A DNA stretch of 60,408 nucleotides. Source: Clostridia bacterium. Its GTDB lineage: Bacteria > Bacillota > Clostridia > Oscillospirales > CAG-272. The notes beneath the pieces were generated by a model. It was given only the letters and a program-made list of their open reading frames with translations, was not told where the DNA came from and ran no database searches. Shown here one piece after another: positions 21,668 to 49,704 of the stretch. The translations under genes were made by a program, and so were the position numbers. The number at the start of each line of letters is the position of its first letter. Position 1 is the stretch's first letter. The stretch spans positions 1 to 60,408 of the forward strand of contig JAGBYM010000159.1 of assembly GCA_017628755.1 (NCBI GenBank), given 5' to 3'.

Positions 21668-22249
21668 TTGTTTGATGTTATAACAGGAATTGTATGGTCA
21701 ATTGTTTATTTGCTTATTGTAATATACGGTATAAGATATAAAAAAGAAAAGAAAATCATGATGCCATTAATCCCCGGAAGCATATGTATTGCATGGGAGT
21801 TAAATGCGCTTATCATTTCTCGTGGATTGTGGGTGCATGTTTTATGGCTGGGATTGGATGTATTTATCTTTATCTTGAATATTTACAACATTGCAAAATT
21901 ACGAAACCGGATATTGTATATAACAATGACCGTATTTTGGGCAGTATTTTTTGCATTTTTGTTTAGAATTACTGCTTTTGACCTAATGTTTATTTCGAGC
22001 TTTTTGCTTGATCTCGGTATAGCCGTTGGTTATGTTATAAAAGCCAAAGATATTTCTAGACATGGACAGATACCAATAGCGATTACAAAATTATTAGGAG
22101 ATATGTGTGCTTGTATCTTTTACTCACAGTTTTCAAATTTGATTGTTGTAATAGGTATAATAGTATTTCTTCTTAATCTTTATTATTTAGCAAAATGTTT
22201 GGATTTAGCGGCGCGAGTGTTTGAAAATAAATGCAAAAAGAGAGGATAA
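21668..22249 (+). CDS. Hypothetical 6-TM membrane protein (AT-rich gene)
   Basis: 193 aa with a TTG start and a weak RBS. Strongly hydrophobic segments. Followed 3 nt later by the Lgt-like gene. Confidence 0.5.
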   Translation: MFDVITGIVWSIVYLLIVIYGIRYKKEKKIMMPLIPGSICIAWELNALIISRGLWVHVLWLGLDVFIFILNIYNIAKLRNRILYITMTVFWAVFFAFLFRITAFDLMFISSFLLDLGIAVGYVIKAKDISRHGQIPIAITKLLGDMCACIFYSQFSNLIVVIGIIVFLLNLYYLAKCLDLAARVFENKCKKRG

Positions 22250-22252
22250 GTT

Positions 22253-22957
22253 GTGATAGATTTTTTAATCCAATACTGTTTATATCTTATCCTTGCGGTG
22301 GCAACCGCTTTTGGATATTTCTGGATAAGCCAATTCAAAGAAAAACTCGGTATTAAAGAATGGATGGCGTTAGTAATATCTATTATTCATACACTTTGTG
22401 GAGTAGTTTGTGTAAAGCTGTTTGCTTTTCTTGAATCGGGACGGGGCGGTATGAGTTTGTATGGCGCGATATTTTTCTTGCCTATTATGTATTACATATG
22501 CGCTAAGTTAACAAAACGTAGAGTGGCAGATGTTTTTGACATCTTTACTGTGTGTACAGCGATGACTCTTATGTTCTCACGTTTTAATTGTCTGATTGAG
22601 GGATGTTGCACTGGTCTTGTTATTCCGGGAACAGAATCGATGCAATTTCCGACTCGCGAAGCTGAAATACTGTTTTACATAATACTATATATTGTTTTGC
22701 GAAAAAAAGTTTGCAATCACAAATATAGCGGAAAAATTTATCCTTATTATATGATATCTTATGGTGCTTTCAGGTTTGTGGTAGAATTTTTCCGTGAATC
22801 GAATATGAAATTTGGATGGTTTCATATTTCGCACATTTGGTCGCTGCTTTCTGCTATCATAGGTCTGGCGGCGATATATTTAATAAATACAAATAATAAA
22901 AAAGGAAATCAACCACGTTCTAAACATAAAAAAATATCTAAGGAGGCGGTTAAATAA
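22253..22957 (+). CDS. Prolipoprotein diacylglyceryl transferase (Lgt) family paralogue
   Basis: 234 aa. SRFNCLIEGCCTG matches GRxGCxxxGCCYG of Firmicute Lgt. FPTREAEILF matches P..Q.YE. YGAFRFVVEFFRE matches Y..RF..EF.R. Its stop TAA directly abuts the ATG of the 4013-aa gene. Confidence 0.7.
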   Translation: MIDFLIQYCLYLILAVATAFGYFWISQFKEKLGIKEWMALVISIIHTLCGVVCVKLFAFLESGRGGMSLYGAIFFLPIMYYICAKLTKRRVADVFDIFTVCTAMTLMFSRFNCLIEGCCTGLVIPGTESMQFPTREAEILFYIILYIVLRKKVCNHKYSGKIYPYYMISYGAFRFVVEFFRESNMKFGWFHISHIWSLLSAIIGLAAIYLINTNNKKGNQPRSKHKKISKEAVK

Positions 22958-25900
22958 ATGAATATAAGTGTTGAAAAACGATTTTTGTCTCTGCTTTTGG
23001 CGTTTATTATGGTATTTTCTCTGTTCCCGTGGTGGACGCTGGATGTCGGTGCGGCTTCGTATAAAACCGAGACAGGTTCCATAGGAAATATCGGATATAG
23101 TGTTAAAGTACCAATAACATCCGACAAAAAGGAAGACCTGGGTAGTTTTAATGTAAATGGTAATACGATAAATGCATCAGCTAAAAGTGAGTATAAATAT
23201 GATAATGGTGGATGCTTTTCGGATCCAAGCGTTACATTCACGGCTACAACAATTACTATTACATTAACAAATAATTCTGGTTCGGATGCTGTAATTGGAT
23301 TTTTGTTTGATGGCGGCAGTACAGTTACTGTTTCCGGAGTGAGCATTGGTACTGGAGGTAATTACGTATCTCCGAAGTTGGAACATGGAGCAAGTATTGA
23401 GATTGCTATGAAAAGCCCTGCTACCGGTACACCGTATGTGGAACAAAAGTACGGTGTTGGTGACACTTTTAACTTGAATCTCAATGATATATATTTGCAG
23501 ATTAAAGAAACAGTAACTATTGAGTACGATGCGGTTGCAAATGGTACTTATACTGTTGACGGAGTAAGTGTTCAGGAAAAATCCAGCAAACAAATTGATA
23601 CTACGCAAGATATAGTTTTGGTTGCAACTCCTGCGGATGGTTATGTGTTTGCGGGATGGAAAAATTTAACCACAGGAAAATATTTCTCTTTCGAGTCAAG
23701 CGTTACTACAAAGTTTTCGAGTAATGCATCGTTTGAACCTTCGTTTGTATGGGGCGGAGATGTAGCATGGGCAATTTCCGGATCACAATACGCTACTTTG
23801 GATGATGCTCTGGCTGCGGTAACTCCAGGTTATACTATCACACAAATTAAAGAAACTGTTACCCTAACAAAGAATTATACCATTCCCGCAGCTGTTACCC
23901 TTTTCATTCCTTGTGATACTGAATACACTGTATGCACAGACCAACCTAACGTTATGGATAGCTATATAGCTACTCCCACTCCGTTCCGCACGCTTGTTTT
24001 GGCAAATAACGTCAAGCTTACGGTACAGGGTAATATATGTGTTGAGGGTTCGCAAGCACCCGATCAGGGGTATAATGGCGCTCCTACCGGACCTGTCGGC
24101 TTTATCAGAATGGCTTCAGGCAGTGAGATCATCCTGGAATCGGGTGCTAATTTATACGCTTGGGGCTATATAACAACTGACGGAATAAATGGCGAAGGTA
24201 CTGTAACTGCAAAGAACGGAGCTTCCGTATACGAGTGCTTCCAGATGATGGACTTCCGAGGCGGTAGCTGTTTGGCTTTGGGAACTTCGATAAGCGATGG
24301 AGGCTTGGGCGGAATTATAGGCGGCATTTTTGGTGATAACGGTATGATCAATAATACCAAAGAAGTTTTCCCAATGTCGCAGTATTACATACAGAATATT
24401 GAAGTCCCATTGACTCTCAATGCAGGCGCTGTAGAGAGGGCATATATGTCTACTAATGCCGGAGGATTGAGCGGTAGTGAAATAGCAGGTGCAATTATTC
24501 CGATCATTTCCGGTTCTTCGGAATCAATGTTCCAGTTAACCTCGGGTACTATTTCCAAGGATTTCAACGAATCTACCGGAAGAATTGAGTTTGAGATCCA
24601 TAACGGTGCGCTTACAGTCAATTCCATCAATATGAGTATGAAATTGATGGGTGTGCAGCAGACTCTCAATTCTGCGAATTTCATACTTCCTATTCCCGGA
24701 CATATGTCGGTTACCGCATCAGGCAACAGTACGGTAATTATAAACCAGGATATTGCGCTATTCCCCGGATCTGAGTTCGTTATAGAAGAAGGTGTTCACT
24801 GTACACTTCCTTCCGGGTATAAGATCATCGTATACGATGCAGACGATTGGGGAGGGTACTGTTCTTCGGTAAACGTGCCGTTCTGTCCCCTTGTTTATGC
24901 ACCCGGAAGGGCTTCCGTCTCTATGGGCAATTACGATGATGATCCTAACAAAAGACCTGTAAGTCTTAGCGGTGTGCCGGTTGACGGCCTTGCTTTGACA
25001 CCGGATGTAGAAAAGGATTATGGTGAGCTTGGCATACATCTCATCAGTAAGGCCGTCATGAATGACGCAACGGTTCGTATCAACGGAACAATTGATGCTT
25101 CGGGCGGTGCGGTTTATACAACCTCCGGCGGAGCAAATATCTATACCACAGGCTCCGGTGTGGTAATTACAAAACCCGGAACCGAAACAACAACCTATCA
25201 GGCAACTCAGGCTGCGTCAACACCTTCGTATCTTCCCATTACAATTACTCCCGCTGTGATGAGAGACGGAAACGGTGATGCTTTTGAAACCGCGGGTGTT
25301 GAAGGAACTTCCACTTATAATTATTGTACCGAGTCAGGTCATAATAAGTGGTATAACATCAACAGCACTGATAGCACCACAGTTACGCCTCCGACGTGCG
25401 TGGACGTCGGTTATACGACGGTTGCATGTAAGTGCGGATCTTCCTATAAAACCGCTGAAGTTCCCGCAACCGGAATTCATACTCCCGGAGATGCTGTAGT
25501 TGAGAATACGGTTGCCGAAACCTGCGGAAAAGACGGTTCTTATGACTCTGTAGTATACTGTACCGTATGTTCCCAGGAGCTCAGCCGCAATAAGATTACA
25601 GTTCCGGCAACGGGTAAACATACCGAAGTGATCGACGCGGTGGTTCCCGCAACCTGTACCGCAACCGGTCTTACCGAGGGTAAGCACTGTTCGGTATGTA
25701 ATGCAGTACTTGTAGCGCAGAATGTTACCGCTGCCCTTGGCCATACCTTTGAAACGGTTGGCGCCAAGGCTCCGACTTGTAGCGCTACGGGTAACATAGA
25801 GCACAAGAAGTGTACTGCTTGCTCGAAATTCTTTGCCGCTGACGCCGCTAATGATTCCACGGCAGGCAACGATACCGCAGAAGCGTTTAATCTTCCTATC

Positions 25901-28900
25901 GTTCCCACCGCTCACAAGTGGGAAAGCGAGTTCACGGTAGATAAGAAGGCTACCTGCACTGAAGTAGGTCAGAAGAGCTATCATTGCGAATACTGCGATA
26001 CCCAAAACACCGAATCGGTCACTGAAATTGCAAAGAGAGCGCATAATTACGTTGACACTACCGTAAATACTGCGCCTACCTGCCAGTTGCCCGGTACTAT
26101 GAATCAGAAGTGCGCGCACGAGGCTTCGGATGAATACGAGGCTTGTACTTCGACAACCACAAGAGTAATTGACAAAGACCCCAACGCTCACGGTTGGGAA
26201 ACCGAATATACGGTAGACCAAAAGGCTTCCTGCTTCCAAACGGGTAAGATGAGCTATCACTGTGCATACTGTGATGTGATCAACCCCGAATCGGTAGTCA
26301 CAATTGAAGTCAGAGAGCATAATTTTGTTGATACTACTGTCGAAGAGCCTTCTACTTGTACAGTAGACGGTATCATGAATCAGAAGTGCGATCACGCGGC
26401 TTCCGATGAATATTTGGCGTGTAATGCAACCACTACCAGACCGTACAAAGACCCCAACGCACATAAGTGGGCAACCACTTATACCGTAGACTGGAAGGCA
26501 ACGTGTGATGCTGACGGTCAGATGAGCTATCATTGCGTATACTGCGGCGTAGTCAATACCGAATCCGCAGTTGCGATCGAAAAGAGAGCTCACGTATACA
26601 AGGATAACGGAGTACATACCGCGGCTACGTGTAGTGCAGAGGGTGTGATGTATACGATCTGTACCAACATCGAAACCGATACACATAAAGCTTGTACTCA
26701 TGAATCCACCAGAGAGATTCCGATTGATCCCAATGCTCACAAGTGGGAAACTACTTACACAGTAGACAAAAAGGCTTCCTGCTCTGAAGCAGGTCAGAAG
26801 AGCTATCACTGTGAATACTGTAACACGATCAATGAGGCTTCCAAGGTCGTTATCGAGCAGAGAGCACATGATCTCAAGGATACTACAGTTCAGCTCGCTG
26901 CTACCTGCTCGGCAGCCGGTATTATGAATCAGGAATGTGTTCATGAAGCTATCGATGAATACGAGGCTTGCGATTACACTACTACAAGAGAAATCGCGAT
27001 CAATCCCTCCGCTCATGAGTGGGACAATCCTTCTTACACATGGTTAGGCAAAGAATGCCAGGCTGAACGTGTTTGTAAACACAACAATGCACACAAAGAG
27101 TCCGCTTACGCTGATGGCGAGTCTGTTACCTCCTCTGTCAAGATTCCCGCTACCTGTGAGGTAGCAGGAACTACTACCTATACGGCAGTATTCGATGGCG
27201 TAGAATGGACGGTTCCCCAGAAAATGGATCTCCAGGATATTTCCGCGCTTGGTCACAAATGGAGCGTAAGCTACGCTTGGACTCAGGAGGCGGACAAGTG
27301 GATTTGTACCGCAACACATACCTGCGCAAACAGCGATAGCTGTACCGAAACCAAAAAGGTTGAGGCAAGCAGCGGAGTCAAGACTCCCGCAACCTGTACC
27401 GTAGACGGATGGACTACCTACACTGCAACTTTTGAGGCAACGTGGGCAAAAACCCAGACTCGGGAAGAGCAGGATATCCCCGCGATCGCACACAAGAACA
27501 AGGTTCATCATGCTAAAGTTGACGCAACCTGTGTGGCAACCGGTGTAATCGAATACTGGTCCTGCCCCGACTGCGGAAAGAACTTCTCTGATGAAGCTTG
27601 CACTACCGAGGTAACGAAGCTTACTATAGAGATCGATTCCAATAACCACGATCTTAAGACAACCGATGCCAAGGCACCGACCTGTGAAGATATCGGTTGG
27701 GATGAGTACGTAACCTGTCAGAGAGAGGGTTGCGGACATACGACTTATGTCGAAATCACTGCGCTCGGTCATGATTACGACGAAACCAAGAACGAATCAA
27801 ACCTTACAAGACCCGTAAAGAACGGTGACACTTGGTCTGACGGTTATTATACCTTCACTTGTAAGAATGATCCGTCTCATACGAAGACCGAATCTGTCAA
27901 GAGAGCGGATTATACCGCTTATGAGGCTGCAAAGAGCGAACTCGAGAGTCTTCTTGCGCTTGACCTGACTGCTGAGGCAAAGGCGGAAATCAATAACGTG
28001 CTTGCTGCCAACGAGTTGGATGACAACCTCATCGAAGCAGAGAAGATAAGCGTTGATACCGCAACCGCGAATCTGACTGCGGCGTATAATGCATATAAGA
28101 ATGCATTCAATTCCTATACCGTAAACTTCGTTGTAAACGGCGAAACGGTCAAGACCGAAACCGTTGTCAGCGGCGGTAAGGCAACCGCTCCCGAAAATCC
28201 CGCTAAATCTTATGATGGTACCTATCATTATAGCTTCTCGGGTTGGGATAATGCGTTCGATAATGTTACCGCAGATGTGACTGTAACTGCACAGTTCACT
28301 TCGATCGCGCACACTTTCACGTCTCATACCGACAAGGACGACACCGTTCATACCGACAAGTGCGCTTGCGGCTATGAAACCGATGTTGCTCACAGCTATA
28401 ACAGCGGAGTTGTTACAACACCTTCCACTTGTATCGAAAAGGGCGTAAAGACGTTTACCTGTTCGCTCTGCTCTGGTACGAGAACCGAAGAAGTTGATTT
28501 CGATGCCGCAAACCATGCAAGCAAAGATTATGAATACGTTGATAATGACAACGGAACTCATATCAAGAAGTACGCTTGCTGTGAGGTTGTGATCGAATCT
28601 TCCGAGAATCATATTTATAACGCAGTTGGCGAATGTGCTTGTACAAACAAGGCTGAAGCAAAGCTCGGCGGAACCTACTATTACAAGTTCGTTGATGCCG
28701 TTGCCGCTGCTGCGAACGGTCAGACAGTTACTCTCTGCCGCGATGCGGTTGGAGCGGGTGTTGTGATCGACAAGTCAATCACCATCGATTTCGGCGGTTA
28801 TACCTACACCTTCAATTGCCCCGTAGGCTCTTCGGGTACCGAAACTCTCGGTTTCCAGATCTTTGAGGGTAACAGCGTAACCCTTAAGAACGGTACTCTT

Positions 28901-31900
28901 ACCGCAAATGACGGAACAAATGCTAACGGCAAGGTGACCAAGGTTCTTGTTCAGAACTACGCGAACCTGACCGTAGATAATATGAATCTTATCGGAAACG
29001 ATAATATCCAGTATTGCCTCTCCAACAACAGTGGTGAGATCAATATCACCGGTAACACTACAATTACCGCAACAGGCGATAACGTAGCGTTCGACGTATA
29101 TTATTACGAAGGCTACGAAGCTCCCGTTGTAAACGTAAATACCACAGGTAAGATCACGGGTAAGATCGAGGTTTCCGAATCGATCAATGACAATTTGAAT
29201 ATTTCAAACGGTACTTATACCTTTGAGATCAAGCCGGAATGGTGCGCAGATACTTATGAGGTTACTTATAACTCTGCTGACGGTACCTACGGTGTTAAGA
29301 AGCACTATGTTGCCGCTATCGGCGATATTCAGTACACTTCTTTGAAGGATGCTGTTGATGCTGCTAAGCCCGGCGAAACTATCACTCTGCTCGGTAACGA
29401 TACCGGTTCGGGTGTCGTGATCGACAAGGCGATAACCGTTGATTTTAAGGGTTATACTTACACCGTAAACTCTCCCGTAGGTTCTGCGGGAACCGAAACT
29501 CTCGGATTCCAGATCCTTGCGGACGGCGTAACGCTTAAGAACGGTGCTCTTGCCGCAAATGACGGAACAAACGAGCACGGCAAGGTCACCAAGGTTCTCA
29601 TTATGACCTACGCTGATCTGAATGTTGACGGACTTACTCTTAGAGGCAACAGCAATATTCTTTACTGTCTCTCCGTCAATAGCGGAACAGTTACCGTAAA
29701 TAATTCCACTATTATTGCAACTGCGGGTAACGTGGCGTTTGATGCTTGTAAGTATTCAAGCTACGAAATACCCAATGTTATCCTTACCAATACAAACGTA
29801 ACCGGTAAGGTTGAGCTCACCGGCGGTAACGTAACGCTTGAAAGCGGCACGTATAATGCTGATTTCGATGTTCAGTTGGGTGAGCTTACCGTAAAGGGCG
29901 GTTCTTACTCTACGAACGTTACCGAGTACTGTGTTCCCGGCGACCATACCGCTCCCGATGGTAATCTTTACACCTACGGTGCTCATGATTACAGTTCTGT
30001 TTACACCGCACCTACCTTCGATGCGGACGGCTTCACCACCTATACCTGTATCTGCGGCGATGTATATGTGACTACCGAAGAGGGATCACAGAAGATCGCA
30101 GTTGCAAAGATCGGTGACGTGAGATACGAATCTCTCGCAGAAGCTGTTGCGGCAGCACAGGAAAACGATACTATCCTTCTTGTTAAGGATACTGTTGGTT
30201 CGGGTGTTGTAATCGACAAGTCGATCACCATCGACTTCGGCGGTTATACCTACACCTTCAATTGTCCCGTAGGTTCTTCCGGTACCGAAACTCTCGGTTT
30301 CCAGATCCTTGCAGGCAACATCGTAACGCTTAAGAACGGTACTCTTACCGCAAATGGCGGAACAAATGCTAACGGCAAGGTGACCAAGGTTCTTGTTCAG
30401 AACTATGCTGACTTGACCGTTGAGAACATGAGCCTCGAAGGTAACGAAAACATTCTCTATTGTCTTTCTATCAACAGCGGTAGCGTGGAGATCAAGAATT
30501 CCACTATCACCGCAACAGACGGAAACGCAGCATTTGATGCTTGTAAGTACAGCACATACGCAATGCCTGACGTTAAGGTCGAAAACTCCACCATCGTTGG
30601 TAAGGTTGAGATCACAGGCGGTGACGTAGATCTTATGAGCGGAGATTATACCGAGGCAACCTTCGACGTTCAGTTGGGCGAGTTCACCGTCAACGGTGGC
30701 AGCTTCGCTCAGAATGTTACCGAGTACTGTGCTACCGGTTATCATACCGTCCTTAAGAACGGCATTTACGAATACGGTGCGCATACCTACTCCGAACCTC
30801 AGATCTTCAGATTCTGTGAAGAGGAAGGCTACATCCAGATCACTTGTCCCGATTGCGGAAACACTTACGATTCCCGCTCGGATAAGGAAGCAGAGATCTA
30901 TCTCAATGAGAATACTGTAGATCTGACTCCTCTTCGCCACGATTGGACAGTAACCTATAGCTTTGCGGTAGACGGATCGGCTTGCACCGCAACCCGCGTA
31001 TGCGGACACGATAACAGCCACAAGGAAACTGCGACAGCAACTATCACTTCCGATGTAACCACTCCCGCTACTTGCGAGGTAAAGGGTAAGACCACCTATA
31101 CTGCAACATTTGCCGAAGATTGGGCAGAGGGGCAGACATTGGAGGTAGAAGACGTAGATGCTCTTGACCATGATTGGACAGTAACCTACAGTTTTGCGGC
31201 AGACGGATCTGCTTGCACTGCTACTCACGTATGCGGACGCAACGCAGAACACAACGTAACAGTTGATGCTACCGCTATCACTTCCGAAAGAACTCCTCCC
31301 ACTACTTGCGAGGCAAAGGGTAAGACCACTTATACCGCAACATTTGCCGAAGATTGGGCAGAGGCACAGACATTGGAGGTAGAAGACGTAGATGCTCTTG
31401 GCCATGATTGGACAGTAACCTACGATTTTGCAGATGACGGATCTGCTTGCACCGCAACCCGCGTATGCGGCCGCAATGCAGAACACAACGTAACAGTTAA
31501 TGCTACCGCTATCACTTCCAATGTAACCACTCCCGCTACTTGCGAGGCAAAGGGTAAGACCACCTATACCGCAACATTTGCCGAGGATTGGGCAGAGGGA
31601 CAGACATTGGAGGTAGAAGACGTAGATGCTCTTGACCATGATTGGACAGTAACCTACGATTTTGCAGCTGACGGATCTGCTTGCACCGCAACCCGCGTAT
31701 GCGGACACGATGCAAATCATACTGATACTGCCACTGCAATTATAAGCAGTGTGGTGGAGACTCCCGCAACCTGTACCGAGGACGGTACAACTCTCTACAC
31801 CGCAACCTTTGAGGAAGCGTGGGCAGAAACCCAAACAAAGTTGGTAACAGATATACTTAAGCTTAATCACGATTACGTCATAAGCTATGTTTGGAGTGAA

Positions 31901-34900
31901 AACGGTAAATCCTGTGAGGCGGTAAGAGAGTGTAAAAACGATGCCCGCCACAGAGCAAACGAAAAGGTATCTGCAAGCGGCTCCATTGAAACTCCTGCAA
32001 CCTGTACCGAGAAGGGTTGGACCACCTACACTGCAAACTTTACCGCAGTTTGGGCAACATCTCAGACCCTTGATATGCAGGATATCCCCGCAATTGCTCA
32101 CAAGAACAAGGTACATCACGCAAAGGTCGATGCAACCTGTATCTCGGAAGGAACCATCGAATACTGGTCCTGCCCTGACTGTAACATGAACTACAGCGAT
32201 GTTGATTGTACAGCAAAGGTAACGGATCTTGTAATTCCGATCAATTCCGATAACCACGCAACCACCACCAATCACGTACAGACCGATGAAACCTGCGTAA
32301 GCGTGGGTTACACAGCCGGTACCTTCTGTGAAGATTGTGATAAGTGGATTTCGGGACACGAAGAGATACCCGCAATCGGTCATAAGAACAAGGTACATCA
32401 CGCAAAGGTCGATGCAACTTGTATTGCTTCGGGAACCATCGAATACTGGTTCTGCCCCAACTGTAACAAGAACTACAGCGATGAGGCTTGTACCGAAGTT
32501 GCAACCGATCTTGTGATTTCGCTCGATTCCCAAAACCACGTAAATACCATAGATCACGAAAAGACAGATGAAACCTGCGTAAGTATTGGTTACACAGCCG
32601 GCACCTTCTGTGAAGACTGTGAAAAGTGGATTGAGGGACACGAAAGAATCCCCGCAATTGCTCATAAGAACAAGGTACATCACGCAAAGATCGATGCAAA
32701 TTGCTCCGAAGCAGGAGCGATCGAGTACTGGTTCTGCCCCGACTGTAACAAGAATTACAGCGATGAGGCATGTACTGACGAAGTAACCGAAGTTGTAATA
32801 CCGATCAAGCCTGATAACCATGTAAATACCATCAATCACGGACAGACCGATGAAACCTGCGTAAGTGTTGGTTACACCGCCGGTACCTTCTGTGAAGACT
32901 GTGAAAAGTGGATCGCGGGACACAACGAGATCCCCGCAATCGCTCATAAGAACAAGGTACATCACGCAAAGATTGATGCAACCTGTATCTCGGAAGGAAT
33001 CATTGAATACTGGTCTTGCCCCGACTGTAGCAAGAACTACAGCGATGAGGCTTGTACTGTTGTGGCAACCGATCTTAGAGCTTTCGCACCCGATAACCAT
33101 GTAAACACTACCGATCATGTACAGACCGATGCAACCTGCCTTACCGTAGGTTACACCGCAGGCGTGTTCTGTGAGGATTGTGATAAGTGGATCTCGGGAC
33201 ACGAGGAGATTCCCGCAATCGCTCATAAGAACAAGGTACATCACGCCAAGGTTGATGCAACCTGTATCTCGGAAGGAACTATCGAATACTGGTTCTGCCC
33301 CGACTGTAACAAGAACTACAGCGATGAGGCTTGCACTGTTGAGGCAACAGAGATCAAGACTTCCGCACCCGATAACCACGTAAACACTACCGCTCACGTA
33401 CAGACCGATGCAACCTGCCTTACCGTAGGTTACACCGCAGGCGTGTTCTGTGAGGATTGTGATAAGTGGATCTCGGGACACGAGGAGATCCCCGCAATTG
33501 CCCATAAGAACAAGGTACATCACGCAAAGGTCGATGCAACCTGTATCTCGGAAGGAACTATTGAATACTGGTCCTGCCCCGACTGTAACAAGAACTACAG
33601 CGATGTTGATTGTACAGTAGAGGTAACAGAGTTTGCGATTCCGATCAATTCCGATAACCACGTAAATACCACAGCTCACGTAGACATCCCCGCGACCTGC
33701 TTAACCGTAGGTTACACATCCGGTACCTACTGTGAAGATTGTGACAAGTGGATTGCAGGATATGAAGAGATTCCCGCAATTGCCCACAAGAACAAGGTTT
33801 ATAACGCAAAGGTCGATGCAACCTGTGTTGCGAAAGGTACTATTGAACATTGGTTCTGCCCCGACTGTAACAAGAACTACATTGATGAAGCTTGCACAGA
33901 AGTAGCAGCAAATATCAATATTGATATCGAGCCCGGAAATCATAAGCCCGAAACTGTTGAAGCTGTGGCTCCCACATGTACCGAATCCGGACTTACGGAA
34001 GGAAGCCGTTGCGGATTGTGCGGCAAGATCTTTGTAGCTCAGGAAATCGTTGATGCTCTCGGACACACCGATGGTGAGGCGGTTTACGAAAACGTTATCG
34101 AAGCTACCTGTATCGGTTACGGATCTTATGATACGGTTGTTTACTGTACTGTATGTAACACCGAACGGAGCCGTAAATACATCGAAGTTGAGCCCACTGA
34201 GATTCATGATTACATAGTCGAATACCGCTGGAGCGGTACCAGATACTGCGCTGCTATCATCACTTGTGAAACCTGTGATCTTGACAAAACAGTTCAGGGT
34301 ACGATCACTCCTCCCGTGTACTACGAAGGCGATTGCCAGAATTACGGTAAGACAGTCTATACCGTAACCTTCAGCGCCGCTCAGATGGAAATGTATGACT
34401 GCCTTGAAACTCAGGAAAAGGAAATTACCGGAGCAAAGGGCGATCACATCTATTCATACATCGCAGATGCTGACGTGCATTGGAGTAAATGTACCGTATG
34501 CGGTGAAGAGTCCTCCAAGACTGCTCACGATTTCAGCGCGGGCGATTGTATATGCGGTGAAGGCAAGCCGATTACCGAGATCCCCCTTGGTATCAAGGAA
34601 TATGATGCCGAAACCGACAGCGGATATACCGTAAGAGAAAACGTTGTTACCGTTAAGTACAGCGAAGCTTGCGCGGTAGGTTATCTTGTTGACGGAGAGT
34701 ACGTTGCCATCGAGGCTGTAAAGAACGATGACGGAAGCTATAGCTTCACAGCTCCCGAGGGAGTGAATGAGGTTCTGGTCGTTGTTATCGGTGATATTGA
34801 CGGCGACGGCGACGTTGACGAAGCTGACATAGATCTTATGGCAGGTTCTCAGATGCCCGAAGGCGAATCGCTTACGGCAAAACAGCATTTTGCGGCAGAC

Positions 34901-34999
34901 ATCAACCGCAACGGAGTGGTCAACTCCGCTGACAGAGTATGGATCGCTCGCAGCTTGCTTGATAAAACAAATGATTTTTACAAAGCTCTGAGTTGGTAA
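22958..34999 (+). CDS. Giant (4013 aa) secreted modular protein: N-terminal beta-rich region, His/Cys-rich module arrays, three beta-helix-like modules, C-terminal dockerin
   Basis: Single uninterrupted ORF with an AAGGAGG RBS. Signal peptide MNISVEKRFLSLLLAFIMVFSLFPWWTLDVGAAS, with no lipobox Cys. Repeat families are listed as separate features. Ends in a dockerin. Confidence 0.85.
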   Translation: MNISVEKRFLSLLLAFIMVFSLFPWWTLDVGAASYKTETGSIGNIGYSVKVPITSDKKEDLGSFNVNGNTINASAKSEYKYDNGGCFSDPSVTFTATTITITLTNNSGSDAVIGFLFDGGSTVTVSGVSIGTGGNYVSPKLEHGASIEIAMKSPATGTPYVEQKYGVGDTFNLNLNDIYLQIKETVTIEYDAVANGTYTVDGVSVQEKSSKQIDTTQDIVLVATPADGYVFAGWKNLTTGKYFSFESSVTTKFSSNASFEPSFVWGGDVAWAISGSQYATLDDALAAVTPGYTITQIKETVTLTKNYTIPAAVTLFIPCDTEYTVCTDQPNVMDSYIATPTPFRTLVLANNVKLTVQGNICVEGSQAPDQGYNGAPTGPVGFIRMASGSEIILESGANLYAWGYITTDGINGEGTVTAKNGASVYECFQMMDFRGGSCLALGTSISDGGLGGIIGGIFGDNGMINNTKEVFPMSQYYIQNIEVPLTLNAGAVERAYMSTNAGGLSGSEIAGAIIPIISGSSESMFQLTSGTISKDFNESTGRIEFEIHNGALTVNSINMSMKLMGVQQTLNSANFILPIPGHMSVTASGNSTVIINQDIALFPGSEFVIEEGVHCTLPSGYKIIVYDADDWGGYCSSVNVPFCPLVYAPGRASVSMGNYDDDPNKRPVSLSGVPVDGLALTPDVEKDYGELGIHLISKAVMNDATVRINGTIDASGGAVYTTSGGANIYTTGSGVVITKPGTETTTYQATQAASTPSYLPITITPAVMRDGNGDAFETAGVEGTSTYNYCTESGHNKWYNINSTDSTTVTPPTCVDVGYTTVACKCGSSYKTAEVPATGIHTPGDAVVENTVAETCGKDGSYDSVVYCTVCSQELSRNKITVPATGKHTEVIDAVVPATCTATGLTEGKHCSVCNAVLVAQNVTAALGHTFETVGAKAPTCSATGNIEHKKCTACSKFFAADAANDSTAGNDTAEAFNLPIVPTAHKWESEFTVDKKATCTEVGQKSYHCEYCDTQNTESVTEIAKRAHNYVDTTVNTAPTCQLPGTMNQKCAHEASDEYEACTSTTTRVIDKDPNAHGWETEYTVDQKASCFQTGKMSYHCAYCDVINPESVVTIEVREHNFVDTTVEEPSTCTVDGIMNQKCDHAASDEYLACNATTTRPYKDPNAHKWATTYTVDWKATCDADGQMSYHCVYCGVVNTESAVAIEKRAHVYKDNGVHTAATCSAEGVMYTICTNIETDTHKACTHESTREIPIDPNAHKWETTYTVDKKASCSEAGQKSYHCEYCNTINEASKVVIEQRAHDLKDTTVQLAATCSAAGIMNQECVHEAIDEYEACDYTTTREIAINPSAHEWDNPSYTWLGKECQAERVCKHNNAHKESAYADGESVTSSVKIPATCEVAGTTTYTAVFDGVEWTVPQKMDLQDISALGHKWSVSYAWTQEADKWICTATHTCANSDSCTETKKVEASSGVKTPATCTVDGWTTYTATFEATWAKTQTREEQDIPAIAHKNKVHHAKVDATCVATGVIEYWSCPDCGKNFSDEACTTEVTKLTIEIDSNNHDLKTTDAKAPTCEDIGWDEYVTCQREGCGHTTYVEITALGHDYDETKNESNLTRPVKNGDTWSDGYYTFTCKNDPSHTKTESVKRADYTAYEAAKSELESLLALDLTAEAKAEINNVLAANELDDNLIEAEKISVDTATANLTAAYNAYKNAFNSYTVNFVVNGETVKTETVVSGGKATAPENPAKSYDGTYHYSFSGWDNAFDNVTADVTVTAQFTSIAHTFTSHTDKDDTVHTDKCACGYETDVAHSYNSGVVTTPSTCIEKGVKTFTCSLCSGTRTEEVDFDAANHASKDYEYVDNDNGTHIKKYACCEVVIESSENHIYNAVGECACTNKAEAKLGGTYYYKFVDAVAAAANGQTVTLCRDAVGAGVVIDKSITIDFGGYTYTFNCPVGSSGTETLGFQIFEGNSVTLKNGTLTANDGTNANGKVTKVLVQNYANLTVDNMNLIGNDNIQYCLSNNSGEINITGNTTITATGDNVAFDVYYYEGYEAPVVNVNTTGKITGKIEVSESINDNLNISNGTYTFEIKPEWCADTYEVTYNSADGTYGVKKHYVAAIGDIQYTSLKDAVDAAKPGETITLLGNDTGSGVVIDKAITVDFKGYTYTVNSPVGSAGTETLGFQILADGVTLKNGALAANDGTNEHGKVTKVLIMTYADLNVDGLTLRGNSNILYCLSVNSGTVTVNNSTIIATAGNVAFDACKYSSYEIPNVILTNTNVTGKVELTGGNVTLESGTYNADFDVQLGELTVKGGSYSTNVTEYCVPGDHTAPDGNLYTYGAHDYSSVYTAPTFDADGFTTYTCICGDVYVTTEEGSQKIAVAKIGDVRYESLAEAVAAAQENDTILLVKDTVGSGVVIDKSITIDFGGYTYTFNCPVGSSGTETLGFQILAGNIVTLKNGTLTANGGTNANGKVTKVLVQNYADLTVENMSLEGNENILYCLSINSGSVEIKNSTITATDGNAAFDACKYSTYAMPDVKVENSTIVGKVEITGGDVDLMSGDYTEATFDVQLGEFTVNGGSFAQNVTEYCATGYHTVLKNGIYEYGAHTYSEPQIFRFCEEEGYIQITCPDCGNTYDSRSDKEAEIYLNENTVDLTPLRHDWTVTYSFAVDGSACTATRVCGHDNSHKETATATITSDVTTPATCEVKGKTTYTATFAEDWAEGQTLEVEDVDALDHDWTVTYSFAADGSACTATHVCGRNAEHNVTVDATAITSERTPPTTCEAKGKTTYTATFAEDWAEAQTLEVEDVDALGHDWTVTYDFADDGSACTATRVCGRNAEHNVTVNATAITSNVTTPATCEAKGKTTYTATFAEDWAEGQTLEVEDVDALDHDWTVTYDFAADGSACTATRVCGHDANHTDTATAIISSVVETPATCTEDGTTLYTATFEEAWAETQTKLVTDILKLNHDYVISYVWSENGKSCEAVRECKNDARHRANEKVSASGSIETPATCTEKGWTTYTANFTAVWATSQTLDMQDIPAIAHKNKVHHAKVDATCISEGTIEYWSCPDCNMNYSDVDCTAKVTDLVIPINSDNHATTTNHVQTDETCVSVGYTAGTFCEDCDKWISGHEEIPAIGHKNKVHHAKVDATCIASGTIEYWFCPNCNKNYSDEACTEVATDLVISLDSQNHVNTIDHEKTDETCVSIGYTAGTFCEDCEKWIEGHERIPAIAHKNKVHHAKIDANCSEAGAIEYWFCPDCNKNYSDEACTDEVTEVVIPIKPDNHVNTINHGQTDETCVSVGYTAGTFCEDCEKWIAGHNEIPAIAHKNKVHHAKIDATCISEGIIEYWSCPDCSKNYSDEACTVVATDLRAFAPDNHVNTTDHVQTDATCLTVGYTAGVFCEDCDKWISGHEEIPAIAHKNKVHHAKVDATCISEGTIEYWFCPDCNKNYSDEACTVEATEIKTSAPDNHVNTTAHVQTDATCLTVGYTAGVFCEDCDKWISGHEEIPAIAHKNKVHHAKVDATCISEGTIEYWSCPDCNKNYSDVDCTVEVTEFAIPINSDNHVNTTAHVDIPATCLTVGYTSGTYCEDCDKWIAGYEEIPAIAHKNKVYNAKVDATCVAKGTIEHWFCPDCNKNYIDEACTEVAANINIDIEPGNHKPETVEAVAPTCTESGLTEGSRCGLCGKIFVAQEIVDALGHTDGEAVYENVIEATCIGYGSYDTVVYCTVCNTERSRKYIEVEPTEIHDYIVEYRWSGTRYCAAIITCETCDLDKTVQGTITPPVYYEGDCQNYGKTVYTVTFSAAQMEMYDCLETQEKEITGAKGDHIYSYIADADVHWSKCTVCGEESSKTAHDFSAGDCICGEGKPITEIPLGIKEYDAETDSGYTVRENVVTVKYSEACAVGYLVDGEYVAIEAVKNDDGSYSFTAPEGVNEVLVVVIGDIDGDGDVDEADIDLMAGSQMPEGESLTAKQHFAADINRNGVVNSADRVWIARSLLDKTNDFYKALSW
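25910..27010 (+). repeat. Four tandem ~92-aa Cys-rich modules (273-276 nt period)
   Basis: Units start with AH(K/G)W at 25910, 26186, 26459 and 26735. Consensus: AHKWET.YTVDKKA(T/S)C...G..SYHC.YC....ES...I..R.H...D......TC...G.M...C.......AC. Confidence 0.85.
27011..27477 (+). repeat. Two diverged ~78-aa modules of the HxW...TPATC..G.TTYTA.F type
   Basis: HEWDNPSYTW..CQAERVCKHN..IPATCEVAGTTTYTAVF and HKWSVSYAW..CTATHTCANS..TPATCTVDGWTTYTATF. These are the same family as the 30938-32083 array. Confidence 0.7.
28661..30783 (+). repeat. Three ~217-264-aa beta-helix-like modules
   Basis: Modules start near 28661, 29312 and 30104 with (K/A)(L/I)G...Y..L..AV.AA..G.TI.L, then GSGVVIDK.IT.DF.GYTYT...PVGS.GTETLGFQI....VTLKNG.L.ANDGTN..GKVTKVL. 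Modules 1 and 3 share a ~77-nt stretch with one mismatch (about 28884-28960 vs 30329-30405). Confidence 0.8.
30938..32083 (+). repeat. Five tandem 77-78-aa modules (231-234 nt period)
   Basis: HD(W/Y) unit starts at 30938, 31169, 31403, 31637 and 31868. Consensus: HDWTVTY.FA.DGSACTATRVCG.....H..T..A.ITS..T.PATCEAKGKTTYTATFAEDWAE.QTLEVEDVDAL. Confidence 0.9.
32084..34066 (+). repeat. Seven tandem 93-94-aa His/Cys-rich modules (279-282 nt period)
   Basis: IPAI(A/G)HKNKV unit starts at 32084, 32366, 32648, 32930, 33209, 33488 and 33770. An isolated eighth copy lies at ~27478. An 89-nt stretch is perfectly identical between 33122-33210 and 33401-33489. Confidence 0.9.
34790..34960 (+). other. 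Dockerin module
   Basis: GDIDGDGDVDEADIDLMAGSQ ... ADINRNGVVNSADRVWIARSLL. Confidence 0.8.
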
Positions 35000-35042
35000 A
35001 AATTCATTATAACACACATATAAATTGAGGAGGAATCCTGAA

Positions 35043-36740
35043 ATGAAAAATGGATTACTTAAATCGTTTTCGTTGATATTGGCTTTGTGCATGATGCTTA
35101 CAAGCATGAGCATCGTTGTCATTGCGTCCGATGTCAGCAAACTTGACATTAGCGGCGGAAGCGTTGAATTGGATGTTACCAATGCAGGCACTGTAACTAT
35201 CAGTGTTGTTGCTAAAGAAGAACTTACCTTCTACGGTATTGAAGGAAGTTTTGATATCAATGAGGGTGAAAATAAATATTTCACCCTGAAGGATATCACT
35301 TCCGACTGTATTGTGTTCGAAAATACCGAGAACAATTTTGCAGACGTCGAGACCGGTGAAGTTGTTTGGGTCGATGAGTCCTTCACAGCGTCCGCAACCG
35401 CTGCGGGAACCAATATCCTTACCGCTACTTATGAGGTGGCTGCAAACACCCCTGACGGTAAGTACACCTTAAGCTTTACTTCTTCGGTTTTCACCGGTGC
35501 AACCGGTGATCCCGATGAGACTGATACCGTATTCGAGGCAACGATCACTGTTACTCACAAGTGTAAGGCAGAGGAACAGGCTGCTAAGAAGGCAGAGTGC
35601 GAAATTGACGGTTGGAAGGCTTATTATCAGTGTCCTCATTGCGGCAAGTGCTATATCGATGCAGCCGCTACCGATCTGATTGCAGATATCGACGCTTGGA
35701 AGCTTGCTGACGGTAAGATTCCCGCAATCTCTCACAAGGATGAGAACAAGGACCATGTTTGTGAAAACGAATGCGGCAAGCCTGTAGGTGAGTGTGTTGA
35801 CACAGATAAGGATCACAAGTGTGACTACGGCTGCGGCAAGGACTACGGAACCCACGAGGATACCGATAAGAACCATGTTTGTGATCACGGTTGTTCCGTA
35901 GCGATCGGTGAATGCGCAGACACAAACAATGACCATGCTTGTGACTACGGATGTGACAAGGTGCACGGAGTTCATGAGGACATCGGCAAGGATCACCTTT
36001 GCGATTACGGTTGCGCCAAGCTTATCGGAAAATGCGAAGATACCGACTTTGACCATAAGTGTGACTACGGATGCACCCAGCTTTACGGCTTGCATAAAGA
36101 CGGCAACAATGACCACGTCTGTGATTACGGATGTAAGGAAGCAATCGGCGCATGTGAGGACAAGGATCCCCTTGACCACAAGTGCGACTACGGCTGCGGC
36201 AAGGCTATAACCGCTTGCAAGGATTGCCTTAAGAAGACCGAGGCTGTTCCCGCATACTGCGAGACTCCCGGTAACACCGAGTACTATACTTGTACCGTTT
36301 GCGGAAAGTTCTATTCCGATGCTCTGGCTGCAACCGAGATCGAGAAGGACTCCTGGATCATCAAGGCTACCGATCATAAGTGGTCAACAACTGCTTCGTA
36401 TACCAATAACGGTAACGGAACTCATACAGCTACTTATACCTGTGACAACAATGCAGAGCACACCTACTCGGATGCTCCCGCAGCTCACGTATACGTTGAA
36501 GGCTTCTGCGTATGCGGTGCGGATGAGTCGCTTGCGGGCTATATGAAGGGTGACGTTAACCTCGACGGTGAAATAGATTCAGAGGACCTTACTATTCTTG
36601 CGCGTCATATTGCAAAGATTGAGCATATTACCGATCTCGTTGCACTTGACAATGCAGATATTACCTCTGATGGAGATATTTCTTCTGATGACCTTACCAA
36701 GCTTGCACGTCACGTTGCAAAGATCGAATCCATTTCTTAA
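35043..36740 (+). CDS. Secreted 565-aa protein: cohesin-like N-domain, 8 x DHxCDYGC repeats, Cys-rich modules, dockerin
   Basis: ATG at 35043 preceded by GGAGG. Signal peptide MKNGLLKSFSLILALCMMLTSMSIVVIAS. No terminator separates it from the 4013-aa gene, so it is probably co-transcribed. Confidence 0.8.
   Translation: MKNGLLKSFSLILALCMMLTSMSIVVIASDVSKLDISGGSVELDVTNAGTVTISVVAKEELTFYGIEGSFDINEGENKYFTLKDITSDCIVFENTENNFADVETGEVVWVDESFTASATAAGTNILTATYEVAANTPDGKYTLSFTSSVFTGATGDPDETDTVFEATITVTHKCKAEEQAAKKAECEIDGWKAYYQCPHCGKCYIDAAATDLIADIDAWKLADGKIPAISHKDENKDHVCENECGKPVGECVDTDKDHKCDYGCGKDYGTHEDTDKNHVCDHGCSVAIGECADTNNDHACDYGCDKVHGVHEDIGKDHLCDYGCAKLIGKCEDTDFDHKCDYGCTQLYGLHKDGNNDHVCDYGCKEAIGACEDKDPLDHKCDYGCGKAITACKDCLKKTEAVPAYCETPGNTEYYTCTVCGKFYSDALAATEIEKDSWIIKATDHKWSTTASYTNNGNGTHTATYTCDNNAEHTYSDAPAAHVYVEGFCVCGADESLAGYMKGDVNLDGEIDSEDLTILARHIAKIEHITDLVALDNADITSDGDISSDDLTKLARHVAKIESIS
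35130..35557 (+). other. Cohesin-like beta-sandwich domain (tentative)
   Basis: About 142 aa: LDISGGSVELDVTNAGTVTISVVAKEELTFYGIEGSFDINEG..FTLKDI...TNILTATYEVAANTPDGKYTLSFT. This is pattern resemblance to cohesins only. No HMM was run. Confidence 0.35.
35751..36227 (+). repeat. Eight tandem 20-aa acidic His/Cys repeats (60-nt period), alternating G.C.D and G.H.D endings
   Basis: DHVCENECGKPVGECVDT / DKDHKCDYGCGKDYGTHEDT / DKNHVCDHGCSVAIGECADT / NNDHACDYGCDKVHGVHEDI / GKDHLCDYGCAKLIGKCEDT / DFDHKCDYGCTQLYGLHKDG / NNDHVCDYGCKEAIGACEDK / DHKCDYGCGKAITACKDC. Confidence 0.9.
36549..36728 (+). other. Dockerin module (sequence type distinct from the other two)
   Basis: GDVNLDGEIDSEDLTILARHIAKIE ... 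ADITSDGDISSDDLTKLARHVAKIE. Confidence 0.8.
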
Positions 36741-49120: not shown

Positions 49121-49687
49121 ATGAAAAAGAAAATATTGGCGCTTGCGCTGATCGTCATCTGTCTTTCGATAGTGGCGTACGGCACGACCGCGTATTTTAC
49201 ATATGATATAATCGCAACTCACGTTATAACCGCGGGTAACGTGCGCATCGAGCTCGAGCAGCTTGCAATACTGACTCCGGGCGGCGCACCGATCGAGTTT
49301 GATCGCCCGAACGACATCGTACCCGGCACGAGCGTATCGAAGATCGTTCAGGTGAAGAACACGGGTTACGCGGCGGCGTGGGTGAGACTCGCGCTGACGA
49401 AGGAGATCATACTCGCGTCCGGCGTTACGGGCGAGGTCGATCTTTCGCTCGTGAGCTACGAGATCAATGAAGAATACTGGGCGGAGCAGGATGGCTGGTT
49501 TTATTACCTGAAGCCCCTCGAAGCCGGCGCGACCACAGAGCCGATCTTTACCGAGATCAGCTTTGCGGCGAGCATGAGCAATATGTATCAGAAGAGCCAA
49601 TCGAAGATCAACGTCCTCGCGCACGCGGTGCAGACCGTATATAACGGCGAGAGCGTCTTCGAGGCGGCAGGATGGCCCGAAGCATAA
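49121..49687 (+). CDS. TasA/camelysin/BsaA-like SipW-substrate protein, paralogue 7 (divergent, GC-rich)
   Basis: 188 aa from the ATG at 49121 (TAGGAG RBS). GTTAYFTYDIIATHVITAGNVRIELEQ, DIVPGTSVSKIVQVKNTG and C-terminal AHAVQ. Confidence 0.7.
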   Translation: MKKKILALALIVICLSIVAYGTTAYFTYDIIATHVITAGNVRIELEQLAILTPGGAPIEFDRPNDIVPGTSVSKIVQVKNTGYAAAWVRLALTKEIILASGVTGEVDLSLVSYEINEEYWAEQDGWFYYLKPLEAGATTEPIFTEISFAASMSNMYQKSQSKINVLAHAVQTVYNGESVFEAAGWPEA

Positions 49688-49704
49688 TGAAAGGAGGCAA
49701 TCGC

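Follow-up and report, generated by a model that had tools for sequence, protein, structure and literature searches.

The window analysed here is the whole of a 60,408-nucleotide stretch from a Clostridia bacterium (contig JAGBYM010000159.1 of assembly GCA_017628755.1, positions 1 to 60,408), and it carries a complete open reading frame (ORF) at 22958 to 34999 on the plus strand that encodes a protein of 4013 residues. A ribosome-binding site (AAGGAGG, 22940 to 22946, plus strand) lies 11 nt 5′ of its ATG. A preliminary description, made from the sequence alone, had presented this ORF as a dockerin protein, and the assignment was confirmed by a match of Dockerin_1 (PF00404) to residues 3945 to 4001 (E = 4.6e-7, 30.4 bits, above the gathering cut-off of 22.9). 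Between the signal peptide and the dockerin lie an N-terminal region, a head domain, and two long His/Cys-rich stretches, the latter set apart by a linker, a few irregular units, and three repeats of approximately 210 residues (Table 1). For the Listeria-Bacteroides repeat that had been proposed, Flg_new (PF09479) matches residues 1720 to 1781 with 25.4 bits (E = 1.6e-5), slightly under the Pfam cut-off of 27. Another repeat, Flg_new_2 (PF18998; divergent InlB B-repeat), was found at residues 187 to 249 above its cut-off of 23.6 (24.6 bits, E = 2.5e-5).

The recurring His/Cys unit of the 4013-residue protein

The basic unit of the protein comprises approximately 42 residues with the pattern H-x11-15-C-x3-G-x6-8-C-x2-C and is found either alone or fused into modules of 92, 78, and 94 residues. 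Its cysteine core, written as C.{2,5}G.{3,9}C..C, occurs 25 times in the protein, compared with a mean of 0.46 and a maximum of 5 in 500 residue shuffles, and a hidden Markov model (HMM) of the unit detected about 45 full or partial units between residues 802 and 3852. The His, the three Cys, and the Gly are invariant across 18 aligned units of the protein, and a hand count gave about 46 complete His/Cys tetrads. The motif count, the HMM, and these invariant columns thus bear out the earlier view that a single unit with one His and three Cys builds several types of modules. The proposed arrays of 4 x ~92, 5(+2) x ~78, and ~7(+1) x ~94 residues were likewise recovered with the motif, the HMM, and tandem-repeat detection by TRF, which reported 3.3 copies of 234 bp at 88% match in the 78-residue array and 6.5 copies of 282 bp at 83% match in the 94-residue array.

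Each copy of the 92-residue array consists of a canonical unit followed by a variant unit in which C-x10-C substitutes for CxxC. The 78-residue modules are present as five copies at residues 2658 to 3044, with two further copies at residues 1351 to 1508, while the 94-residue modules form six full copies and one hybrid at residues 3045 to 3660, with one further copy at residues 1509 to 1613. In the 94-residue array, the A and B units have one predicted Cys3His site each, shared with a neighbour. Altogether, the unit-bearing regions (residues 786 to 1641, 1783 to 1898, 2325 to 2367, and 2591 to 3870) amount to 2295 residues, or 57% of the protein, in agreement with the earlier estimate that more than half of it is modular. 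They contain 144 of its 163 Cys and 103 of its 112 His.

It had also been considered that the giant ORF, or its copy numbers, could be an artefact of repeats collapsed or expanded during assembly of a metagenome contig. The window does match a contig of a short-read metagenome assembly at ENA (k141), and the ORF does contain tandem DNA repeats. Even so, collapse or expansion by the assembler is very unlikely because the copies have diverged to 70 to 90% identity and exact internal repeats are at most 92 bp long. Furthermore, the frame is uninterrupted over 12 kb, and homologues of 2000 to 7000 residues with the same head-plus-array architecture are found in many independent assemblies.

Table 1. 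Layout of the 4013-residue protein and positions of its parts in the window.
Feature	Residues	Nucleotides	Strand	Basis
Sec-type signal peptide	1-33	22958..23056	+	by eye: K/R n-region, hydrophobic core LSLLLAFIMVFSLFPWW, VGA followed by AS
N-terminal region, including Flg_new_2 (187-249)	34-265	23057..23752	+	Pfam
Conserved unannotated head domain	266-785	23753..25312	+	homologue comparison, AlphaFold2
Metal-unit rod 1, ~17 predicted tetrahedral sites	786-1641	25313..27880	+	unit HMM
Three simple ~42-residue units (most widespread unit type)	838-966	25469..25855	+	unit HMM
4 x ~92-residue array	984-1350	25907..27007	+	motif and unit HMM
Two 78-residue-type modules	1351-1508	27008..27481	+	
94-residue-type A unit, then two variant units (C-x4-C; C-x5-H); array end	1509-1641	27482..27880	+	
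Cys-free Ala/Glu/Leu-rich linker, probably helical	1642-1716	27881..28105	+	sequence
Listeria-Bacteroides repeat Flg_new	1720-1781	28115..28300	+	Pfam, slightly under cut-off
Irregular short His/Cys units, ~4 predicted sites	1783-1898	28304..28651	+	unit HMM
Three ~210-residue repeats	1906-2135, 2136-2342, 2388-2608	28673..30781	+	mutual identity 51-58%
Metal-unit rod 2, ~24 predicted sites	2609-3870	30782..34567	+	unit HMM
5 x ~78-residue array	2658-3044	30929..32089	+	
~6.5 x 94-residue array, A and B units alternating	3045-3660	32090..33937	+	
Two simple units, 78-like module with CxxC, two terminal mini-knuckles without top Cys	3661-3870	33938..34567	+	
Small Cys-poor segment preceding the dockerin	3871-3944	34568..34789	+	
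Type I dockerin	3945-4001	34790..34960	+	Pfam Dockerin_1

Searches of the whole protein and of ten segments against Pfam-A and NCBIfam returned nothing significant for the Cys-rich regions, and the weak noise from zinc-finger, rubredoxin, EGF, and cytochrome families was inconsistent among segments. Nor did any zinc-finger or zinc-ribbon Pfam model score above its cut-off with the whole protein or the segments. Three familiar candidates were examined and rejected. The C2H2 zinc finger (PF00096) does not fit, as the unit has no helix and no second His 3 to 5 residues off, zf-C2H2 reached E = 4.7, and the unit His stands 11 to 15 residues ahead of the Cys, unlike the C2H2 order CX2-4C...HX3-5H. 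A zinc ribbon has two CxxC on one sheet, whereas each unit has one CxxC, a His before β1, and apparently a Cys from the preceding unit. A c-type (multi)haem cytochrome was dismissed with 0 CxxCH in the protein.

Single-sequence searches of PDB sequences gave noise only. A profile of the 78- plus 94-residue region (alignment A2), however, matched residues 851 to 927 of 9qa6_A at E = 4.8e-10, and the unit profile A1 alone matched the same chain at E = 1.1e-3. This chain is the IgA protease of Thomasclavelia ramosa (IgAse, UniProt Q9AES2), and the matched residues lie within its domain ZBD1, also named CTD2 (PMC12237041, PMC12415215). ZBD1 and ZBD2 (CTD2 and CTD4), known from AlphaFold3 models only, are described as an uncharacterised fold, a rod built from three-stranded sheets in which putative zinc sites of the His2Cys2 or Cys3His type sit where subdomains meet, and subdomain I of ZBD1 distantly resembles the TFIIS zinc ribbon according to the authors (PMC12237041). 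The ZBD domains are dispensable for catalysis, and monodispersity requires a reducing agent (PMC12237041). By SAXS (small-angle X-ray scattering), CTD2 is a fully extended rod proposed to project the protease from the cell surface, and CTD2 and CTD4 were put forward as a "metal-associated periscope domain" whose zinc sites are predicted, "pending experimental validation" (PMC12415215). As judged from the profile match, the units are homologues of the ZBD1/CTD2 fold, which came to notice in 2025 through predictions and SAXS data on one protein. The earlier remark that the modules were not recognised as a named family accordingly holds for Pfam and NCBIfam, which have no model for them, but they are not wholly unknown, being homologous to ZBD1/ZBD2 of IgAse.

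Ligand dependence across unit boundaries

Unit statistics were compiled from 5852 units of 386 homologous proteins, with residue conservation calculated over 4841 units. In HMM numbering, the conserved columns are H4, C17, G21, C28, and C31 (positions H4, C19, G23, C31, and C34 of alignment A1), and C17, located in the β1-β2 loop, is referred to here as the top Cys. Conservation in these HMM-selected units reaches 100% for H4, 98.9% for C17, 99.8% for G21, and 99.9% for both C28 and C31. The spacings are H-x11-15-C, C-x10-12-C, and CxxC, followed by 13 to 16 residues up to the next His, and the residue after the second Cys of CxxC is G, N, or D in 82% of the units. An AlphaFold2 (AF2) model of residues 2891 to 3149, which span two 78-residue modules, one 94-residue module, and the start of the next, was built from a 51-sequence alignment. 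The model is confident (mean pLDDT 93.9), all-β, and helix-free by DSSP, with three strands per ~42-residue unit. The His lies 2 residues ahead of β1, the top Cys in the β1-β2 loop, and the CxxC across the β2-β3 turn. Given up-and-down hairpins, these strand positions would place the His and the CxxC at one pole of the unit and the top Cys at the other, adjoining the following unit. The modelled 78-residue module has six strands in two sheets and, from the model together with covariation, one predicted His2Cys2 site per module junction. No match at E <= 1e-3 was obtained when the module model was compared with the PDB by Foldseek.

The presence of the top Cys depends on whether another unit follows. 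Column C17 is Cys in 3245 of the 3254 non-redundant units that precede another unit, compared to 4 of 37 array-terminal ones (Fisher p = 2.5e-66). The 4013-residue protein keeps this rule at all of its array ends: Phe2354 replaces the top Cys in the single unit at residues 2343 to 2387, between ~210-residue modules 2 and 3, and the top Cys is also absent from the last unit before residue 1641 and from the terminal mini-knuckles. When C17 is lost internally, an extra Cys or His appears beside the ligands of the next unit (GHxH, CxCC) in 8 of 9 cases, compared to 107 of 3423 (3%) otherwise (p = 1e-11). The first site of rod 1, right after the head domain, has a Cys in cis as well (C790-x4-H795...C824-x-C826). 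Because the top Cys is lost at array ends and compensated for when lost internally, these statistics indicate that the fourth ligand of each predicted site is contributed by the preceding unit. A comparable dependence was seen in the 78-residue modules, where the top ("PATC") Cys of module n-1 is co-lost with His4/Cys25 of module n (375/1/3/7, p = 4e-12), and C-x5-H and CxxC interchange at one position across homologues. Taken together, these patterns indicate a putative junction site formed by the "PATC" Cys of the previous module with His4, Cys25, and His31; Cys19, which is 54% conserved, is therefore not a ligand. The zinc-knuckle or zinc-ribbon geometry suggested by the preliminary description thus stands as far as the metal-type spacing is concerned, but not as a self-contained knuckle or ribbon, the predicted site being shared by consecutive units.

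Given their extracellular location and high Cys density, the units might instead be disulfide-knotted repeats of the EGF or TSR type, free of metal and with a conserved His that is structural or incidental, and the weak Pfam noise on EGF_LMN_ATRN and cystine-knot families would agree with this. However, an odd number of conserved Cys (three) accompanies an invariant His in each unit, and Cys and His interchange at ligand positions (CxxC versus C-x5-H; a missing top Cys versus HxH or CxCH), swaps that a disulfide would not tolerate. In addition, the hosts are gut and rumen Clostridia known from metagenome-assembled genomes (MAGs) and presumably strict anaerobes, and the homologous IgA protease is disulfide-free in structures and models and aggregates without reductant (PMC12237041). 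A disulfide-based fold is therefore quite improbable. The odd Cys number, the invariant His, and the Cys/His interchange favour tetrahedral metal staples over disulfides, so that, of the metal and disulfide alternatives left side by side in the preliminary description, the ligand statistics (cross-unit dependence and Cys/His swaps) argue for metal.

Cys3His and Cys2His2 ligand sets, as in mitoNEET and Rieske proteins, respectively, also fit [2Fe-2S] clusters. The same sites could hence hold iron, Fe-S clusters, or haem, and the array could act as an extracellular redox conduit, for which weak profile matches to rubredoxins and to a cytochrome c model might be cited. These matches are nonetheless non-significant and limited to the CxxC knuckle. 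Haem is excluded because none of the 27 CxxC of the protein is a CxxCH, and electron transfer is disfavoured because the sites, one per ~42 to 78 residues, would lie an estimated 35 Å or more apart along the rod on the scale of the IgA protease model (129 residues per ~110 Å), too far for electron tunnelling. We consider a redox role highly improbable.

As a separate observation, the A units of the 94-residue array (residues 3045 to 3660; 32090 to 33937) carry an extra Cys 9 residues past the CxxC and a His pair in β1. The two features co-occur across homologues (51/86 versus 299/4585, odds ratio 21) and could be an accessory metal site or a mere subfamily trait.

Homologues, partner domains, and genomic neighbourhood

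Word-seeded protein searches, in each of which scoring was limited to the 8000 candidates sharing most words, returned 4738 and 1176 proteins. An HMM scan of 1.84 billion cluster representatives gave 27,608 matches at E <= 1e-3, 13,165 at E <= 1e-10, and 3,134 at E <= 1e-30, with up to 65 units per protein and proteins of up to 7169 residues. The weak tail of these matches may include eukaryotic C2H2 arrays, the knuckle motif being common to both. The preliminary description had pointed to a survey of the motif in related genomes; in a collection that represents each species by one genome, matches were obtained at 565 or more places. Of these, the 80 best are almost all in gut or rumen Clostridia MAGs and comprise Oscillospiraceae, Acutalibacteraceae, Christensenellales, Faecousia, a few Lachnospiraceae, and one Erysipelotrichaceae. 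With the module model, the sole significant Foldseek match in a viral library was BFVD A0A8S5QLF9 (E = 1.1e-9), annotated as "S-layer homology domain (Fragment) [Podoviridae sp. ctdRZ1]". This entry is an array of homologous modules from a contig of the gut virome, which may be bacterial DNA or prophage cargo.

In homologues, the units are combined with dockerin, cohesin, SLH, CWB2, choline-binding, LRR_5, and Big_2 domains. They are also found in Ser/Thr kinases (P0171, P0213, and P0229), in which one transmembrane helix (at about residues 400 to 427 or 372 to 397) is followed by modules of the 78-residue type, and the predicted metal modules of these kinases would be an extracellular sensor or stalk. 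The signal peptide and dockerin of the 4013-residue protein, the surface-anchor modules of its homologues, and the topology of the kinases all place the unit family outside the cell, as had been predicted for this protein.

Since ligand sensing is expected of the extracellular part of a kinase, the units could themselves form a binding surface, either as a sensor or as an adhesin or lectin that binds ligands of plants, mucin, or microbes in a multivalent manner, with which metal staples would be compatible. The presence of several diverged module types in one protein is in line with this, as is the report that, in vitro, the cleavage of IgA is impeded by the C-terminal domains of its protease (PMC12237041). 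On the other hand, the conserved positions are the metal ligands and the Gly, with no surface patch, and the SAXS data on the IgA protease and their authors' reading of them favour a passive rod (PMC12415215). Hence, binding as the main role of the units seems unlikely.

In 35 or more giant homologues, the head domain, of ~520 residues, precedes the unit arrays on their N-terminal side. Its AF2 model (pLDDT 77.5, pTM 0.81) consists entirely of short β strands. The domain had no match in Pfam or NCBIfam and none in the PDB profile search, and Foldseek gave no significant match for the model, the weak list being uniformly made up of β-helix adhesins, autotransporters, tailspikes, and polysaccharide lyases. 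We regard residues 266 to 785 as a candidate for a new, β-solenoid-like head domain on the basis of the model. Regarding the three modules previously described as pectate-lyase-like β-helices, the ~210-residue repeats are real and mutually 51 to 58% identical, but the label itself found no Pfam or PDB sequence match: a Pfam search was negative, the PDB profile search gave nothing below E = 0.2, and the match to NosD of NCBIfam was weak (E = 0.063).

Immediately upstream of the giant ORF, a gene with a Pfam LGT match (prolipoprotein diacylglyceryl transferase family) occupies 22253 to 22957, and its TAA abuts the ATG at 22958, which suggests that the two are co-transcribed. The G+C content drops to 0.368 at 22001 to 24000, where the giant ORF has its 5′ end and the genes ahead of it lie, compared to approximately 0.47 in the flanks. 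The downstream gene (35025 to 36740, plus strand) encodes a dockerin protein of 571 residues, among them 35 Cys and 23 His. This protein contains about nine mini-repeats of ~19 to 20 residues, D.(D/N)DH.CD.GC....G.(C/H).D, and two canonical units (35556 to 35675 and 36240 to 36320), and similar mini-knuckles close arrays in the 4013-residue protein and in several homologues. Two other giant secreted proteins are encoded on the plus strand, one of 1426 residues with NAGPA (phosphodiester glycosidase), Big_2, and dockerin domains (17265 to 21545) and one of 2019 residues with nine Flg_new repeats (49672 to 55731). Polysaccharide-synthesis genes (GT1, flippase, acetyltransferase, Branch) are present at 15.8 to 40 kb. 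Minus-strand ORFs of up to 1197 residues within 25.3 to 35.2 kb (e.g., 30086 to 33679) are taken to be shadows of the repetitive coding strand rather than genes.

A proposed surface fibril and its relation to known systems

We propose, with a probability of roughly 0.72, that the 4013-residue protein is a dockerin-docked surface fibril in which end-to-end units with metal-clamped junctions form a rod that acts as a spacer for the head. The secreted protein would use its C-terminal dockerin to attach to a cohesin on a scaffold, be it cellulosomal or of the cell surface, and about 57% of it would be a rod of small three-stranded β-sheet units arranged end to end. At each inter-unit junction, a single metal ion in tetrahedral coordination, in all likelihood Zn2+, would act as a clamp, held by the top Cys of unit n-1 (β1-β2 loop), by the His that leads into unit n, and by two ligands from the β2-β3 knuckle of unit n (CxxC, or the variants C-x5-H, C-x4-C, and C-x10-C). 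In a reducing, anoxic gut, approximately 46 such staples could stand in for the hydrophobic cores and disulfides that these thin modules lack. The two rods would then serve as a stiff spacer, or "periscope", that holds the β-solenoid-like head and the three ~210-residue modules far from the anchor. If all 2295 residues were fully extended, the length could reach ~0.1 to 0.2 µm, as scaled from the 129 residues per ~110 Å of the ZBD1 model (PMC12237041). The units with their invariant ligand positions, the homology to ZBD1/CTD2, the confident all-β model, and the statistical coupling of ligands from one unit to the next are established here, while the identity of the metal as zinc, the stiffness and length of the rods, their spacer function, and the role of the head are what we infer.

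Several points weigh against this proposal. The metal sites are predicted ones, here as well as in the IgA protease domains, and the assignment of ligands to opposite poles relies on a DSSP string and assumed up-and-down hairpins rather than on measured ligand distances. The conservation percentages are inflated by the selection of units with the HMM, and the compensation test is small, its 9 cases coming from 5 proteins. In many arrays a fourth ligand is not evident for the opening unit, and a pure spacer role leaves the coexistence of several diverged module types unexplained. Finally, the DNA repeats, at 70 to 90% identity, are looser than those of canonical periscope proteins, which to our knowledge are closer.

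That strictly anaerobic gut Firmicutes possess a very large unannotated superfamily of extracellular rods made of coreless β-sheets and stapled by inter-module Cys/His-zinc sites is a tentative generalization, to which we would give somewhat less than even odds. Structural Cys/His zinc sites are usually seen as an intracellular device and disulfides as an extracellular one. If the generalization is correct, zinc staples would be an anaerobe's substitute for disulfide-stabilised extracellular repeats, and zinc supply and oxidants in the gut lumen would determine how stiff the stalks are and thereby how far adhesins, enzymes, and kinase sensors reach, a dependence that could tie them to host nutritional immunity or inflammation. 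Relatives of the protein, nearly all of them from uncultured Clostridia of gut and rumen, are annotated as "hypothetical" because no Pfam or NCBIfam model exists. Given a family model and proof that metal is bound, a considerable fraction of the giant surface proteins in the gut microbiota could be annotated, zinc or redox state could be linked to surface architecture in a testable way, and there would be an explanation for the C-terminal domains of an IgA protease that is under study as a therapeutic. The rule that units share ligands, the fourth being supplied by the unit before, missing where an array ends, and compensated for in cis, amounts to a specific structural prediction that can be checked. 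The interest of the family lies in its being very large and unannotated rather than categorically new.

In the literature, extracellular zinc ribbons or dockerin-linked zinc repeats were not found beyond the two 2025 papers on the IgA protease. Nor did we find an account of the family as a whole, of its several types of fused modules, of the sharing of ligands with array-end loss and cis compensation, or of the units in cellulosomal and kinase contexts. Among known systems, zinc ribbons and C2H2 fingers share with the units a CxxC knuckle on a β-hairpin, and the sequence TG....C..CGK.F of the units resembles a C2H2 linker plus knuckle, as reflected in PDB profile matches to Aart and CTCF. Unlike these, the units have one knuckle each, no helix, no HX3-5H, and a fourth ligand that would be supplied by the neighbour, and they are extracellular. 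The variant-specific surface proteins of Giardia are reportedly rich in CXXC and able to bind zinc. Like our protein, they are extracellular, CXXC-rich, and from a dweller of the oxygen-poor gut, on which they form a coat, yet they are eukaryotic membrane proteins with a different motif spacing, and homology would not be expected.

Periscope proteins and the rod-like stalk repeats of Gram-positive surface proteins, such as the G5-E repeats of SasG and Aap as well as Rib and SHIRT (PMC12415215), are like the present arrays in being long tandem series of thin modules that consist of one sheet, lack a classical hydrophobic core, and project a functional head from the cell wall. No sequence or fold match links them to the present units, whose DNA repeats are also more diverged. 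In contrast to SasG/Aap-type stalks, which rely on β-sheet mechanics alone, the 4013-residue protein has predicted intramolecular Cys/His staples between modules, and it also differs from Aap in that the zinc-mediated dimerisation of Aap is intermolecular and Cys-free. ZBD1 and ZBD2 of IgAse share with our units sequence homology (in subdomain I of ZBD1), three-stranded sheets of ~35 to 55 residues placed end to end, predicted inter-sheet Cys/His tetrads (His2Cys2, Cys3His), an extracellular location, and a gut Firmicute host. Whereas IgAse, which has a sortase anchor, carries 5 predicted sites in two short domains that follow a protease, the 4013-residue protein has a dockerin anchor in place of the sortase one, lacks a protease, and carries ~46 predicted sites in long tandem arrays with four or more types of modules.

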